From: a virus
Taxonomy: Duplodnaviria > Heunggongvirae > Uroviricota > Caudoviricetes
IMG/VR virus record: IMGVR_UViG_2648501787_000007
DNA length: 32,944 nucleotides
Reading direction: 5' to 3' (one strand)
The position numbers and the translations under genes are program-made. Under the pieces are notes generated by a model. The model was given only the letters and a program-made list of their open reading frames with translations, was not told the DNA's origin and did no database searches. Below are positions 7,360 through 26,578 of the stretch, piece by piece (within the stretch, counting starts at the first letter, position 1; each line of letters starts with the position of its first letter).

Positions 7360-8100
7360 TTAACTGTCGGTGACAGTGATTTCTGCAACCGCAGCAAGTT
7401 CACCATTACCGGATACAACCGGAATGTTGACCTTACCTGCAGCAACGCCTTTCACGGTGATGGTCATACCACTGACCGACACGGTGGCTTTTGTTTTATC
7501 CGCTGACACCGCACGGAAGCTCTTGTCAGTTGCGCCCTCCGGCTGGAATGCCACGGTCAGCGTGGTGCTCTGCCCTTTCACCACCGAGGAGCTGGCAGGC
7601 GTCACGGTCATACCGGTTGCCGCCGTCACCGTACTGCGATCTTCTGCCATTGACGGACGGCCCACATTGGTGATCTTCACCGTACGGGTGATCACTTCCT
7701 TCGCCGTCACCGCCTTACCGATACTGCTGACCCAGCCACGGAACACATCGACCGTGCCGTTCGGGAAGCGGATTTTATAGGCACGGGTATCACCTTTATT
7801 AAACCACACCAGCAGCGCCTGCTGCCCCTGCTCTCCGGGCATCCACGCCAGCGTGAAGCTGGTATCTCCGGCGGATTTTTGCCCCTGTCCGGTCGCGGTC
7901 CAGTCTGCATCTTCATCATCGAGATAACTGTCGTCATAGGACTCAGCGGTCAGTTCGCCGGGCGTCAGGTCTTTAACTTTAGCCAGACGCGACCAGTCAA
8001 CGTCTGAAAGCGGGTTCGCATAAGGGTCACCGTTCCCCTGATAAACCCACAGTGTGGTCCCGGCACCTTTCACCGGCATTACAGGATTTGGTACAGGCAT
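7360..8100 (-). CDS. V: Major tail tube protein V
   Basis: ORF contains [31 protein letters not shown]... matching lambda V (246 aa); start set at the lambda-equivalent Met, ORF track extends 10 codons upstream to 8130. Confidence 0.95.
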
Positions 8101-12637: not shown

Positions 12638-16318
<3,681 letters not shown>

Positions 16319-16344
<26 letters not shown>

Positions 16345-16864
16345 TCAGCAACCCCGGTATCAGTTCATCCAGCGCGGCTGCTTTGTTCATGGCTTTGATG
16401 ATATCCCGTTTCAGGAAATCAACATGTCGGTTTTCCAGTTCCGGAAAACGCCGCTGCACCGACAGGGGGATCCCGTCGAGAATACTGGCAATTTCACCTG
16501 CGATCCGCGACAGCACGAAAGAACAGAATGCGGTTTCCACCACTTCAGCGGAGTCTCTGGCATTTTTCAGCTCCTGTGCGTCGGCCTGCGCACGCGTAAG
16601 TCGATGGCGTTCGTACTCAATAGTCCCTGGCTGGAGATCTGTCTCGCTGGCCTGTCGCAGTTCTTCAACCTCCCGGCGCAGCTTTTCGTTCTCAATTTCA
16701 GCATCCCTTTCGGCATACCATTTTATGACGGCGGCAGAGTCATAAAGCACCTCATTACCCTTCCCACCGCCTCGCAGAACGGGCATTCCCTGCTCCTGCC
16801 AGTTCTGAATGGTACGGATACTCGCGCCGAAAATGTCAGCCAGCTGCTTTTTGTTGACTTCCAT
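16319..16864 (-). CDS. Nu1: Terminase small subunit Nu1
   Basis: 181-aa ORF MEVNKKQLADIFGASIRTIQNWQEQGMPVLRGGGKGNEVLYDSAAVIKWYAERD..., matches lambda Nu1. Confidence 0.97.
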
Positions 16865-17060
16865 TGTTCATTCCACGGACAAAAACAGAGAAAGGAAACG
16901 ACAGAAGCCAAAAAGCCCGTTTTCAGCACCTGTCGTTTCCTTTCTTTTTAGAGGGTGTTTTAAATAAAAACATTAAGTTACGACGAAGAAGAACGGAAAC
17001 GCCTTAAACCGGAAAATTTTCATAAATAGCGAAAACCCGCGCGCCTTCCGCCCCGTAACG
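16865..17060 (-). other. cos: cos region: cosN near 17042-17053 plus cosB terminase-binding region upstream of Nu1
   Basis: Minus strand reads ...CGTTACG GGGCGGAAGGCG CGCGGGTTTTCGCTATTTATGAAAATTTTCCGGTTTAAGGCGTTTCCGTTCTTCTTCG..., nearly identical to the lambda left-end/cosB sequence as recalled. Confidence 0.7.
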
Positions 17061-17232
17061 TTCTGGATCGCCGGAAAGGACCCGAAAATGATAATACATA
17101 TCAATTACACTTAAAGGGGGGGGGTTAATTTGTTCACATCAACACTCCGGACCCCAATGGCCTTCTACTCTGGTTTTGCCATAAAATAGTCCTGATACAT
17201 ATTCATATCAGTTAGTCATATACGGAAAAAAT

Positions 17233-17559
17233 ATGGGCATTACTATTTTCAGCAGTGAAATACAGGATGTTGATAGCGAAGCGATGTACAAGAGTTGGCT
17301 AGCAACCCATTCCGATGGATTCGTTATTAATCTGCTTAAGTCGGCCAGCGGGAAAGGCAGAAAAAATGATGCCAGATTTACGCGGATTCATCGAGCCTCA
17401 TGCAAATCAATCAACCCGTTAATCAGCCCAAAAAATCACGCCGGCTTTACTACTGGCCGATACCAAAAAGTATGTGTTCTTACGCTTGACGAGGCCGAGT
17501 CCACCGCAGGCCAACTAACAGGACTGCCAACCATCCAGAGATGTCATTGGTGTATATAA
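17233..17559 (+). CDS. Hypothetical 108-aa protein in the cos-proximal AT-rich island
   Basis: ORF MGITIFSSEIQDVDSEAMYKSWLATHSDGF...IQRCHWCI; no recognisable family, weak ribosome-binding site. Confidence 0.35.
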   Translation: MGITIFSSEIQDVDSEAMYKSWLATHSDGFVINLLKSASGKGRKNDARFTRIHRASCKSINPLISPKNHAGFTTGRYQKVCVLTLDEAESTAGQLTGLPTIQRCHWCI

Positions 17560-17623: not shown

Positions 17624-17911
17624 TTAAATTTGACCTCTTGACTTTTCTATTTCATAAAGACCCACTCCATCTCCTGCATCAAGCAATGCATAATATTCAG
17701 GGTCTTTAATTCGATCTATCTGATTTGAAATTTCAAGTAACTCATCCTTTAAAGAATCTACTTCAGAGGCTAATCTTTCATTTTCATCCCTCAGCTCCCT
17801 AACTTCTTGCTGTAAAGACAGTAAGCTCTTCCCGGTTGCTGGAAATCGGTTTATCTCATGCCAGATTGCAACTATTAAAGCTAATACCGCAACGGTTAAA
17901 GATGTCATCAT
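17624..17911 (-). CDS. Hypothetical 95-aa protein, N-terminal transmembrane helix plus coiled coil
   Basis: ORF MMTSLTVAVLALIVAIWHEINRFPATGKSLLSLQQEVRELRDENERLASEVDSLKDELLEISNQIDRIK...; hydrophobic N-terminus then heptad-like charged segment. Confidence 0.4.
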   Translation of the reverse strand: MMTSLTVAVLALIVAIWHEINRFPATGKSLLSLQQEVRELRDENERLASEVDSLKDELLEISNQIDRIKDPEYYALLDAGDGVGLYEIEKSRGQI

Positions 17912-18018: not shown

Positions 18019-18558
18019 TTATGATTTTTCGATCATTTTTATTACATTTTTGGCTGGCTTAATTTTCATCGTATCGCCGGTAGCAAGGTGCACAAGCAAC
18101 ATTAATTTGCGAACGTTGCCGCCCTGTTCCCATATCTTATTTTTCATATCTCTGGCCCAGTCGCCATTAGTATCATTTTGAATAAAGAAAAATGCATATT
18201 CGCCATGCTCAATTTTTTTTGGTAAATCGTCACCAAACCCACCCCCCAGAATCTGAAGTAGTGAGTTTTTTGTACCGAACGTCCATGTTACTGAAGTTAT
18301 AGTTGCGGTTTGAATGCCAACATTTGCAATGTTGATCGTAACTCCAAACGTGCTCACATTTTGGCCTGTGATGCCCCCAAGCGATACTGTTCCTCTTAAC
18401 TTCGGTCGAGGTCGACGGTTAGAAATATATAAAGTCAGGCATACTGCCATAAAGGTTGCAATGCCTGAAAACCACGTTCCTACCATTGACCAAAAAGCCC
18501 ATTCTGCTGTATTTCTAGTGGCAACCAATGATTCGTAAGCTATATAATCTGCGTTCAT
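18019..18558 (-). CDS. Hypothetical 179-aa membrane-anchored protein
   Basis: Internal ATG at 18558 preceded by GAGGTG Shine-Dalgarno; MNADYIAYESLVATRNTAEWAFWSMVGTWFSGIATFMAVCLTLYI... with one predicted TM helix; the ORF-track N-terminal extension to 18762 crosses a GC-rich segment that is probably non-coding. Confidence 0.45.
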   Translation of the reverse strand: MNADYIAYESLVATRNTAEWAFWSMVGTWFSGIATFMAVCLTLYISNRRPRPKLRGTVSLGGITGQNVSTFGVTINIANVGIQTATITSVTWTFGTKNSLLQILGGGFGDDLPKKIEHGEYAFFFIQNDTNGDWARDMKNKIWEQGGNVRKLMLLVHLATGDTMKIKPAKNVIKMIEKS

Positions 18559-18876
18559 CTTCACCTCATTTATCGATGAAGTGATTGTAACTAAAAGCAT
18601 TATCGCAAGCACTAAGTGAATGCCAACCACACTCTCGCAGTAGCTGCGCTCATTCCCTTGAGGCCATGTGTCAGGGGTATCTCGTGAATCCCTCACCACT
18701 AACCGGAAGCTGACTGGCGACCAGCCTGGAGTACCGGTGCGCTTCTTCCCGTTACCCCTCACCAGTACGCCCTCAGCTTTTTACCTGAGACTGGCTACCC
18801 GCAACTTTGGGTATTCGGGGCAGCATCATGACTGCTGCATTGGCGCCACTTGCCACGGTCCGTCCGCTTTACTGCT

Positions 18877-19411: not shown

Positions 19412-19871
19412 TTACCACCCCACCAGCCTCTTTAAATCGGGAAATCAGGTCACCGATTTTATGTTCATACTGACCGTAACCTGCTCCGGGTAACGAAGCC
19501 CAGATATTGCTGCAACAGTCGATTGCCTGACGGATGTCACCGCGATCAATCATTAGTAAAGCACCACGCTCCTTAATCTGCTGCAATGCAACAGCATCCT
19601 GGCTTTTAGGAGAGAAGTCTGTCAGCCCTAACTGCTTGCGGTAAGCATCCCACCAGCGTGAAAGAAGTTGATAACGGCCTGCGGCTGTTGATTTGAGTTT
19701 CGGGTTTAGCGTGACAAGTTTTCGAGGGTGATCGGAGTAATCAGTGAAGAGTTCGCCACCGACAATAACGTCATAACCGCGGTTACGTGTCGGTTGTCGC
19801 ACGTTATCCGTTCCTTCTGACCACGCCAACATATCGAGGAAAGCTTTACGCTGAGGATTAAGATTTTGCAT
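19395..19871 (-). CDS. R: Endolysin R (lambda-type lytic transglycosylase)
   Basis: 158-aa ORF ...QRKAFLDMLAWSEGTDN...GYDVIVGGELFTDYSDHPRKLVTLNPKLKSTAAGRYQLLSRWWDAYRKQLGL..., matches lambda R. Confidence 0.95.
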   Translation of the reverse strand: MQNLNPQRKAFLDMLAWSEGTDNVRQPTRNRGYDVIVGGELFTDYSDHPRKLVTLNPKLKSTAAGRYQLLSRWWDAYRKQLGLTDFSPKSQDAVALQQIKERGALLMIDRGDIRQAIDCCSNIWASLPGAGYGQYEHKIGDLISRFKEAGGVVNEVEL

Positions 19872-20391: not shown

Positions 20392-21195
20392 ATGACAGAA
20401 AAAGATAACATTGGTAAGTTAATTTGGCATATTGCTTGCGATGAATCTGGCATTGATGGGCAACGTTTCTACGGCTTTGGCAGTCTGTGGATGAAGTACC
20501 AACGCCGTGGGGATTTCTGTCAACTAATCAGAGAACTACGTAGCAAACATGGTTTTTTTGAAGAAATAAAATGGCAAAAAGCCCATTCAAAAAGATACTC
20601 TGAATTTTATCTTGAGCTGATCGACTTATTCTTTAGAGTTCCTTGGCTAGCTTTTCATTGTATCGTGGTTGAAAAATCAATAGTAAACAAGACATTTCAT
20701 AATGGGGATTATGACCTGGCAAGGAGAAAGCACTTCACAAATCTCATTACCACAAAAATTAGCTCTGTAATTTCTGCACACCCTGAAAGAGACAGTTACT
20801 TCAGGATTGAAGTTGATCCTATCGCATCTCGTTATAAAAAGGCCGATGAAGAACTAAATGTTATTGCCAATAACATATTGAATAGAAAATTTGGTCGTAA
20901 AGGGATAATCAGCAGTGTAGTGACAAAAGACTCTAAAGCATCTGAAAACATTCAGCTAGCCGATTTTTTCTTAGGTGCGGTTATGTGCGCATATCAAGGA
21001 AAAGCTTCATCTGAAGCCAAAATAAGAGTATCAAACTATGTTGCTTCATATTTAGGCTGGGATCATTTGCAATATGATACATGGCACACTGAGAGAAAAT
21101 TTAATATCTGGTATTTTTATGATAAAACTCGAGGGCCACGAGATATAGAAACTCAAAATGTTAGCTTAAAGTATCCACTTCCCCAAAAGAAATAG
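20392..21195 (+). CDS. DUF3800-like protein (putative RNase H-fold hydrolase), moron gene antisense to the late leader
   Basis: 267-aa ORF MTEKDNIGKLIWHIACDESGIDGQRFYGFGSL... with N-terminal DESG and C-terminal IQLADFFLGAV motifs recalled as typical of DUF3800; AT-rich; opposite strand to all flanking late genes. Confidence 0.45.
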   Translation: MTEKDNIGKLIWHIACDESGIDGQRFYGFGSLWMKYQRRGDFCQLIRELRSKHGFFEEIKWQKAHSKRYSEFYLELIDLFFRVPWLAFHCIVVEKSIVNKTFHNGDYDLARRKHFTNLITTKISSVISAHPERDSYFRIEVDPIASRYKKADEELNVIANNILNRKFGRKGIISSVVTKDSKASENIQLADFFLGAVMCAYQGKASSEAKIRVSNYVASYLGWDHLQYDTWHTERKFNIWYFYDKTRGPRDIETQNVSLKYPLPQKK

Positions 21196-24098: not shown

Positions 24099-24935
24099 TC
24101 ATTTCAAATTCAGCAGCTCTGAAAAACTATTAACAACATAATCAGGTCTAACATTGGAGAATGCTTTTCTAAGTTGTTCCTCCCTCTCCACATCTGCATC
24201 TTTCCAGTGTGTGATTTTCACTAAAACTTTCCACAATTCAGGTGAAAACTGTCGCCCATAATTAGCCCAAACAGCAGTAACCCCCACAGCTTTAGCCATG
24301 GACATATCTTTAGTTATAGAATCGCCAATGTATACCGCATCTTCAACACTAACTCCTTCAAAAGAACATATGTGCTCAAGCAATTTAGGGTTTGGCTTTG
24401 ACTCAGCGCAGGACAATCTAATTACAAAGTCATCCTTCACAGGTATTTTTTTTGCATTTTTGGGATTCGGGTGGATATTATGAATATCTTCTAATGTATA
24501 AAGATGATCAAAAAAATCAATTATACCAAGCTTATTCAGACGATATAAAGAATTAAACTCCAAAGCTTCAGTATGCCCTACAATTTTTACCCCCCGTTTC
24601 TTCAATAATTCCAGCGTTTCTTTTACAGTAGGATACAACATTAATGTCTGGTTACGTTTTGTGCTAAACGCCTGAAAAACATTAGTAAGTTTTTCCTGCA
24701 AAATCGTTTTATCATTAGTTCCAAAGTAAGATATCACAGATGGTAGCTCTAAAGTAGCAAATGGTTTTTCTGAGTTACCAAACTTCTGATGAATTGTTTT
24801 ATATTCTGACAGGAGCGTATCCAAAGGCACATCAATATCCTTAGATAATTGCTCTGCCATGGCACTAAATGACTGGGAGTAAAAACTCACCCAATCGTAC
24901 AGTGTATTATCCAAATCAGTAATAAGTAATTTCAT
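24099..24935 (-). CDS. HAD-superfamily phosphatase/hydrolase
   Basis: 278-aa ORF with HAD motif I DLDNTL (DxDxT) at residues 7-12 and motif IV-like GDSITKD near the C-terminus; AT-rich; start overlaps the upstream gene stop (ATGA). Confidence 0.8.
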   Translation of the reverse strand: MKLLITDLDNTLYDWVSFYSQSFSAMAEQLSKDIDVPLDTLLSEYKTIHQKFGNSEKPFATLELPSVISYFGTNDKTILQEKLTNVFQAFSTKRNQTLMLYPTVKETLELLKKRGVKIVGHTEALEFNSLYRLNKLGIIDFFDHLYTLEDIHNIHPNPKNAKKIPVKDDFVIRLSCAESKPNPKLLEHICSFEGVSVEDAVYIGDSITKDMSMAKAVGVTAVWANYGRQFSPELWKVLVKITHWKDADVEREEQLRKAFSNVRPDYVVNSFSELLNLK

Positions 24936-26578
24936 AATAAACCTTCAACAATATAAGTAGCCGCCACTTTTTCTCCGCTCTGTTTATCAAGCTTGAAAAA
25001 ATTAAAAGTTAGCTTTTCGCCAGAAAAATCCAGTACGCATGCATAGTTAGCACAATCCTGACTTGGCAATTCCGAACTAACAACTCCTGAACTTCCCAAA
25101 GAAACAATTTGGAATGTATGTTCAGGATTTGAATCCGTCACTGGTTCTAACGGAGATAGTTTTTTTGTTATTGTAATAAAACTACTTCTGTGCATATGAC
25201 CATGCAGAATATAATCAACTTTATGCCTTACTACCCAACGTAATAATCGCTCTGCATCTAATGTTACACTATATCTTGAATCAAGATAGGCATCTTCAAC
25301 TTCATTAATAGAAGTTAGGTGATGGTGAAGCATAGCAATTCTTATAACACCTTTCTTTTTGAGTATATCTCCTCCGCTATCATTCATCCATCCCATAGAT
25401 TTTGCAACATCACTGAGTTGTTGCTCACCGACAAATCCCATGCCCAAAAATGAATCTTTTACTTGTTGTAATACGCATGAGTTCAATGCGGCTATTTCAA
25501 CAACTTTATGGCCACCTAGTAAAAATTTCCTTCCTTGTGATAAATTTTCTTCAGGTTCCCTTTGAAAAAAATCTCGATAAAATTTTATATAATTAAGTTT
25601 ACTTTCGCTATGGTAGTTTTCCGCCAGAATTTTCCATGGTTTATCCGTTACAGGCTTACCAACGATTTTAAAGTACTCATCTTTAGAAACCAGACCTACA
25701 TCGTGATTCCCAGGACAAATAATTATATCATCCGTTGTCAGACTAAGAGAAGAACTAACATCTTTGATAAAATTCAAAGCTTGCTCGAATCCCTCTTTCT
25801 GTGACTGCCACGTCAAATCACCTGAAATAGCCAACCCAGCACATTTACTCCCATTATTATATTTTCCAGCCAACTCCACCACTCGAGAGGATAAACATTT
25901 TAGCTGATCATTATCTTGTGTCGGAAATGCATGTTTCCCATTTCCGCCATCAAAATGAATATCCGAAAGCCAAATTATAAACTCCCCTTTTTTTTGGCTA
26001 TACTTCCGACTGAAATTATAAGGAACATAATGAGATGCTAATGACTCATGCTGTAAATCTTTATCATTTGCAGGTCTAATCTTCCAAATAGTTCTATCTT
26101 GTTTTTTTAATTCAGCTGAAGAAAAGACAATTTTGTTGAAAAGTTGCTCATCTAAATCTTTATTACCTGCAAACAATGCATCCAATGGAATATATGTGAA
26201 TTTTTTGAGGATATCACAAGCATCAATTTCTATAATCTCAGAAACATTTAACCATCCCAGCAACTCATTCTCATTATAATATGCTGGGGTTCTGCGACCA
26301 TCCTTAGGAGATTGCTTTTTTATATCCCCTAAAGCTGACGAGCAGGTATCCTTTAATACAGCGGTATAAAATTTAAGCCGCCCTGAATCAAAAAAATATA
26401 TTTGTTTATTTTTTTCTGCCGCATTTTTTAGTTCCAGTGATGGGAAACGCTCACCAGATTTAGCCCACCACCCCCACCAAACATTCCCTTCTTGGCGAGC
26501 AATGTTATTGTGTTGCTCGATGGTAAATCCTTCACTTTTTCCTAGGTCACGGAACCTAAAAATATAGGTTTCACACAT
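24932..26578 (-). CDS. Calcineurin-like metallophosphoesterase with ~190-aa N-terminal domain of unknown function
   Basis: 548-aa ORF with ordered metallophosphoesterase motifs SDIHFDGG, SGDLTW, GNHD, MLHHH, HGHMH; N-terminal region contains VWWGWW and no recognised motif; AT-rich. Confidence 0.8.
   Translation of the reverse strand: MCETYIFRFRDLGKSEGFTIEQHNNIARQEGNVWWGWWAKSGERFPSLELKNAAEKNKQIYFFDSGRLKFYTAVLKDTCSSALGDIKKQSPKDGRRTPAYYNENELLGWLNVSEIIEIDACDILKKFTYIPLDALFAGNKDLDEQLFNKIVFSSAELKKQDRTIWKIRPANDKDLQHESLASHYVPYNFSRKYSQKKGEFIIWLSDIHFDGGNGKHAFPTQDNDQLKCLSSRVVELAGKYNNGSKCAGLAISGDLTWQSQKEGFEQALNFIKDVSSSLSLTTDDIIICPGNHDVGLVSKDEYFKIVGKPVTDKPWKILAENYHSESKLNYIKFYRDFFQREPEENLSQGRKFLLGGHKVVEIAALNSCVLQQVKDSFLGMGFVGEQQLSDVAKSMGWMNDSGGDILKKKGVIRIAMLHHHLTSINEVEDAYLDSRYSVTLDAERLLRWVVRHKVDYILHGHMHRSSFITITKKLSPLEPVTDSNPEHTFQIVSLGSSGVVSSELPSQDCANYACVLDFSGEKLTFNFFKLDKQSGEKVAATYIVEGLL

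Follow-up and report, generated by a model that had tools for sequence, protein, structure and literature searches.

A minority natural allele of the cosN cohesive end, changed within the overhang's right half, at a lambda-type cos site

Natural variation in cosN, the cohesive-end nicking site, has been documented in several lambda-like phages, and differences at bp 7-12 are described as common among them: N15 and phiD326 depart from lambda at positions 9 and 12, and the Salmonella phage Gifsy-1 at positions 8, 9 and 11 (Feiss et al. 2015, PMC4669245). As far as the earlier genetic work is cited in PMC4669245, mutations of bp 7-12 have a minimal phenotype and symmetric changes in the left half are severe (Xu & Feiss 1991), and this asymmetry between the halves of cosN depends on the proximity of cosB (Hang, Catalano & Feiss 2001). 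The flanking CG dinucleotides and cosQ, a conserved 7-bp site, are maintained in lambda-like phages, whose packaging specificity resides in Nu1-cosB, and the yields obtained with the lambda-specific and the N15-specific terminase are equal whether cosN is of the lambda or the N15 type (PMC4669245). Segregation of mismatched cohesive-end heteroduplexes has also been seen experimentally, with a 2-bp end mismatch lowering the viable yield about 4-fold and both alleles segregating (PMC4669245). The published tolerance data span single changes and, at most, two together, as in the 2-bp N15 allele, and stop short of a combination of five.

The DNA analyzed here, hereafter the window, is a 32,944-nt stretch of the IMG/VR record IMGVR_UViG_2648501787_000007 and comes from the interior of a lambda-like prophage, with tail, head, terminase, cos, lysis, Q, nin, replication and immunity regions. 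At the position of lambda cosN (GGGCGGCGACCT), the minus strand of the window, read from 17053 to 17042, gives GGGCGGAAGGCG, which is the predicted 12-nt 5' overhang and occurs only once in the whole window. The entire cos region aligns colinearly with lambda, this 12-mer included, so the 12-mer occupies the homologous position and is not a chance match. The overhang differs from that of lambda at positions 7 (C>A), 8 (G>A), 9 (A>G), 10 (C>G) and 12 (T>G), turning CGACCT into AAGGCG; all differences are thus confined to bp 7-12, positions 1-6 and 11 are the same as in lambda, and the left half, GGGCGG, is kept at its homologous position. The 16-bp cosN (17040..17055, minus strand), delimited by alignment and by the CG conservation criterion of PMC4669245, includes two CG dinucleotides at the predicted nick sites (CG/GGGCGGAAGGCG/CG), and both are retained in the context ACG/GGGCGGAAGGCG/CGC. 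The original prediction had described the 12 nt at the cohesive-end position as changed in five of the last six bases, and the cos alignment bears this out. The lambda overhang given there is correct, being both the first 12 bases of NC_001416 and the bases labeled 'cos site' in phage DE3, and the refutation that had been foreseen, a lambda reference matching the window at these positions, is set aside by the five real differences in the NC_001416 alignment.

The sequence on either side of the overhang is that of a lambda cos region. The packaging termination signal, cosQ, reads GGGTCCT at 17077..17083 (minus strand), the same as lambda bp 48473-48479, which we take to be cosQ; no indel lies between it and cosN, it stands at the lambda spacing, and lambda bp 48472-48485 on this side are identical in the window. 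Toward the terminase genes, lambda bp 13-72 are identical and the distance from cosN to R3 is conserved, as are the R3 contact bases (lambda bp 55-63, window 16991-16999; contact range taken from PMC9026076). The cosB segment, comprising R3, I1, R2 and R1, is located between cosN and the small terminase gene at about 16888..17005 (minus strand; about lambda bp 49-165), with outer limits that are approximate and placed by homology, and was compared as one stretch rather than site by site. Six differences from lambda precede the Nu1 ATG (bp 73, 97, 105, 134, a deletion at 137, and 149), in agreement with the earlier statement that the approximately 90 nt toward Nu1 are nearly lambda-identical. 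The terminase small subunit Nu1 (181 aa; 16319..16864, minus strand) is identical to lambda Nu1 at 178 of 181 residues (98%), and the large subunit A (641 aa; 14419..16344, minus strand) is identical to lambda gpA at 638 of 641 (99.5%), the substitutions being A239T, I459V and T466I. Both genes, the downstream head genes and the morphogenetic ORFs are intact; the features by which a lambda-like cos is recognized, namely the cosN left half, flanking CG, cosQ, cosB and adjacent Nu1 and A, are all found.

In comparing the site to lambda, architecture and spacing are shared, and the differences amount to the five overhang positions, the six small changes in cosB and a lower two-fold symmetry of the 16-bp cosN, which extends to 8 positions in the variant versus 10 in lambda. 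Given this drop in symmetry, some loss of nicking efficiency for the variant is conceivable. The sticky end is self-complementary in the usual way, 10 of 12 overhang bases are G or C in both phages, and the calculated nearest-neighbor free energy of the annealed ends is -17.8 kcal/mol for the variant versus -18.2 kcal/mol for lambda. The N15 overhang, confirmed as GGGCGGCGTCCG, and that of phiD326 resemble the window allele in being natural ends that differ from lambda in the right half only, including the change of T to G at position 12; however, N15 differs at two positions where the window allele differs at five, and N15 has its own cosB and terminase, with a gpA about 65% identical to that of lambda, whereas the window allele sits in a lambda-type cosB and terminase context. 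The cosN of Gifsy-1 is another documented right-half variant, although its changes are described at the different set of positions given above (PMC4669245). The window allele fits every published rule on cosN variation (PMC4669245).

The window very probably holds a functional lambda-type cos site with a minority natural cosN allele. The changes fall only where the packaging enzyme of lambda is known to accept substitutions, so the variant is very probably an ordinary polymorphism, and neither an error nor a new packaging specificity. By homology to lambda, Nu1 would bind the R sites of cosB, with IHF at I1, and the resulting Nu1-cosB complex would position gpA on cosN, where gpA is expected to place nicks 12 bp apart in the two strands, each at the junction of a conserved CG with the overhang and at the same position as in lambda. 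The predicted products are 12-nt 5' ends, 5'-GGGCGGAAGGCG-3' and its complement CGCCTTCCGCCC, in place of the lambda end. The right half of cosN (bp 7-12) is the half nearest to cosB, and nicking there would be directed by the cosB-anchored terminase in a largely sequence-independent manner, so that no change in terminase would be needed. The likeliest consequence is therefore a change in the sequence of the sticky ends, with their stability equal to that in lambda, and not in packaging specificity; a variant end and a lambda-type end would fail to pair at 5 of their 12 positions.

The allele is widespread. An allele-specific 40-bp megablast, in which the query for one allele is unable to seed on the other, placed the variant at 185 sites in 170 of 5,426 complete E. 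coli genomes and the standard allele at 7,414 sites in 4,101 of them, making the variant about 2.4% of the lambda-type cos sites in complete E. coli genomes. The exact variant with its downstream context is also present in 78 IMG/VR viral contigs, in 23 PLSDB plasmids (from E. coli, Shigella sonnei, E. albertii and E. fergusonii) and in two deposited phages, YDC107_1 and PhiR46_1. Most carriers are prophages. No record or contig starts at the variant overhang, which is internal in the 78 IMG/VR contigs and in both phage records; the standing of PhiR46_1 as an isolated plaque-forming phage comes solely from its GenBank host field, and literature searches on PhiR phages returned no paper describing it. 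In the open-access literature, no paper giving the 12-mer as a phage end was found, and the strings GGGCGGAAGGCG and its complement occurred only in unrelated plant and Streptomyces papers. A scan of one genome per species gave 11 matches, a single one of them the variant (Escherichia sp. E1V33), too small a number for a taxonomic picture. Four of the matches are lambda-type cos sequences in non-enteric assemblies: Raphidiopsis brookii D9 (L215), Aeromicrobium sp. (L216), Archangium violaceum (L217) and the Alicyclobacillus fastidiosus plasmid unnamed3 (L218). The haplotype on the cosQ side is exactly that of lambda in L215, L216 and L218 and differs in L217; these four probably represent lambda or cosmid/control-DNA contamination of the assemblies.

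This distribution bears on two readings raised by the cluster of changes. In one, the overhang would be a sequencing or assembly error, or the decayed cos of a defective prophage that is no longer packaged; the tightness of the cluster recalls some assembly artefacts, and the cos of a defective prophage is no longer under selection. Such an origin is extremely improbable, as the exact 12-mer recurs within its 40-bp context in 170 independent genomes as well as in the contigs, plasmids and phage records listed above, a recurrence that refutes a private error and disposes of the earlier suggestion of a sequence error at the former genome ends. The intact flanking functional elements and morphogenetic ORFs, and the high frequency of the variant on N15-like phage-plasmids, also weigh against decay. 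Moreover, chromosomal prophages of several E. coli strains are about 97% identical to the window over 25 kb, and these closest relatives carry the variant too, which makes it an inherited allele and not a lesion made in the window prophage. An effect on packaging specificity had been suggested in the original prediction; the other reading takes the changed cosN as a sign of changed terminase nicking or packaging specificity, with a co-adapted terminase for which a lambda-type enzyme could not substitute, and vice versa. It would account for five of six adjacent bases being changed inside the nicking site with everything around them conserved, and two of the three gpA substitutions, I459V and T466I, lie in the C-terminal half. 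Among loci with a lambda-type terminase and a full-length gpA or Nu1, however, the difference in frequency between the alleles is 0.3 or less at every residue (gpA, 36 standard and 39 variant loci; Nu1, 50 and 46), and the two allele groups have four gpA sequences and four Nu1 sequences in common that are exactly identical. Both alleles are found with diverged terminases (about 65% gpA identity) as well; terminase type was assigned by tblastn of Nu1 and gpA together with alignments, ungapped cosB identity being misleading owing to a 1-nt indel. With no gpA or Nu1 residue tracking the allele, terminase co-adaptation was rejected. Nu1-cosB, the seat of specificity, is conserved here, and the published indifference of the lambda- and N15-specific terminases to cosN type and the minimal effect of right-half changes point the same way (PMC4669245), leaving a change in specificity very unlikely and without support from these comparisons.

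In addition to the two main alleles, further natural forms of cosN exist. A scan with all 12 overhang positions free gave, among the matches listed from up to 120 contigs, 121 standard and 2 variant sites and three singletons (GGGCGGAGACCT, GGGCGACGACCT and GGGCGTCAGGCG), and a scan for alleles with a base other than T at position 12 gave GGGCGTCAGGCG (13), GGGCGGCAGGCG (4) and GGGCGGCAGACG (3), with one each of GGGCGGCTGACG, GGGCGTCAGACG and GGGCGGCGACCG. The alleles of this second scan are all in cos contexts with GGGTCC upstream, and GGGCGGCAGGCG is one step from the window allele. Natural alleles vary mainly in bp 6-12, keeping GGGCG and the flanking CG, and the right halves form a graded series (CGACCG, CAGACG, CAGGCG, AAGGCG and T-CAGGCG) that links the two main alleles. 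Three viral contigs (L224, L230 and L247) show a more distant cos-like layout, with CACGGGTCCT(C/T)C upstream followed by ACG, GCGCGAAACGAC and CG.GGGTTTTCGC; this arrangement may represent a divergent cos family whose 12-mer is very different.

The variant is not tied to a single genetic background. More than 20 different cosQ-side haplotypes bear it, the standard allele is also found on several of these, and five variant loci have a 165-bp flank identical to that of a standard-allele locus. The clearest case is a pair of loci, L011 (IMGVR_UViG_3300045988_154548, standard) and L270 (variant), which are 99.59% identical over a common block of 3,898 bp; the block has 15 mismatches, five of them those within cosN 7-12, and no other falls between -165 and +721, a clustering with a window-corrected probability of about 1e-7. 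A neighbor-joining tree of a 945-bp flank from 153 loci requires at least 8 allele switches versus about 46 for shuffled labels, although these loci come from scans with different patterns and form a biased sample, and trees of recombining sequence are only indicative. As the switches are repeated yet far fewer than for shuffled labels, the allele appears from these alignments to be mostly inherited with its lineage while being exchanged repeatedly as a 6-bp cassette on otherwise identical flanks. The earlier idea of a recombination at the genome ends therefore stands in part, as evolutionary exchange on identical flanks, and falls as a lesion made in the window prophage, whose close relatives share the allele. 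The swap could have occurred by ordinary recombination in the conserved flanks or by segregation of mismatched cohesive-end heteroduplexes, and it has carried the allele from one lineage to another several times as a single compact unit.

Phage-plasmids carry the variant at an unusual frequency. In complete E. coli genomes it is found at 16 of 35 plasmid sites versus 169 of 7,564 chromosomal sites (2.2%; Fisher p = 2e-17), an enrichment that may reflect the descent of one phage-plasmid lineage. The L270 locus mentioned above belongs to this group: NZ_CP101200.1, with cos at 19801-19840, is an N15-like phage-plasmid with a protelomerase, RepA-type replication and SopAB. The variant-bearing N15-like phage-plasmids (L270 and also H228-H250) are about 46 kb in length and have Nu1/A of the lambda type, not the N15 type, together with lambda-type structural genes, and PhiR46_1 and YDC107_1 have the same gene layout. 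These observations invite a further explanation, in which the right half is a selected, exchangeable type of cohesive end that insulates lineages from one another and spreads, plausibly after cos-to-cos packaging of recombinant concatemers, through segregation of mismatched cohesive-end heteroduplexes. In its favor, the two dominant alleles differ at five of six positions with intermediates rare, switches are seen on identical flanks (L011/L270, and on the flank tree), the plasmid-prophage enrichment is strong, and a 2-bp mismatch is already costly in yield and segregates both alleles (PMC4669245). However, relaxed constraint combined with homologous recombination in highly conserved flanks gives the same pattern, the enrichment may be clonal, and the samples are biased in the manner noted for the tree, so that a selected role for the right half is improbable. 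Were it true, the allele would act as a compatibility barrier, and N15-like phage-plasmids would be unable to form viable chromosomes with the ends of a co-resident lambda-type prophage.

Taken as an ordinary polymorphism, the variant is a previously undescribed yet widespread member of the known right-half class of cosN variants, with little consequence for phage biology. It extends the documented end variation of lambda-like phages from the two or three changes of N15, phiD326 and Gifsy-1 to five of the six right-half positions, and the occurrence of five changes beside an essentially lambda terminase agrees with the functional asymmetry published for cosN. A chromosome packaged from one type of cos to the other would have ends mismatched at all five variant positions, and the exchange of the block on identical flanks parallels in nature, on a small scale, the mismatch segregation seen in the laboratory by Feiss. 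In practical terms, tools that seek the literal lambda cos 12-mer miss about 2% of the lambda-type cos sites of E. coli and, on phage-plasmids, almost half of such sites.

Several other features of the window were observed. A run of nine C on the minus strand (17116-17124) lies about 35 bp upstream of cosQ in a segment unrelated to lambda, and may be liable to vary in length or to be misread in sequencing. The interval of about 2 kb between cos and the lysis genes, which is a typical moron/accessory position, has three ORFs, at 17233-17559 (plus strand), 17624-17911 (minus strand) and 18019-18762 (minus strand), for which Pfam and PHROG scans gave no useful match. One ORF, of 108 aa, is on the strand opposite to the late genes, another encodes a 95-aa protein with a membrane anchor and a coiled coil, and the third, of 247 aa, has weak PHROG matches to families of unknown function. 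Further along, a gene for a DUF3800 protein lies on the opposite strand at about 20392-21195 (plus strand), with Q and the holin on its two sides, where Stx phages have stx, and a HAD-family hydrolase and metallophosphoesterase pair is found at about 24099-26578 (minus strand), between the nin region and the replication genes. These assignments were made by homology to an annotated relative (L208; window position approximately equal to L208 position minus 8000), and the DUF3800 gene and the HAD/metallophosphoesterase pair are possible accessory or defence cargo.
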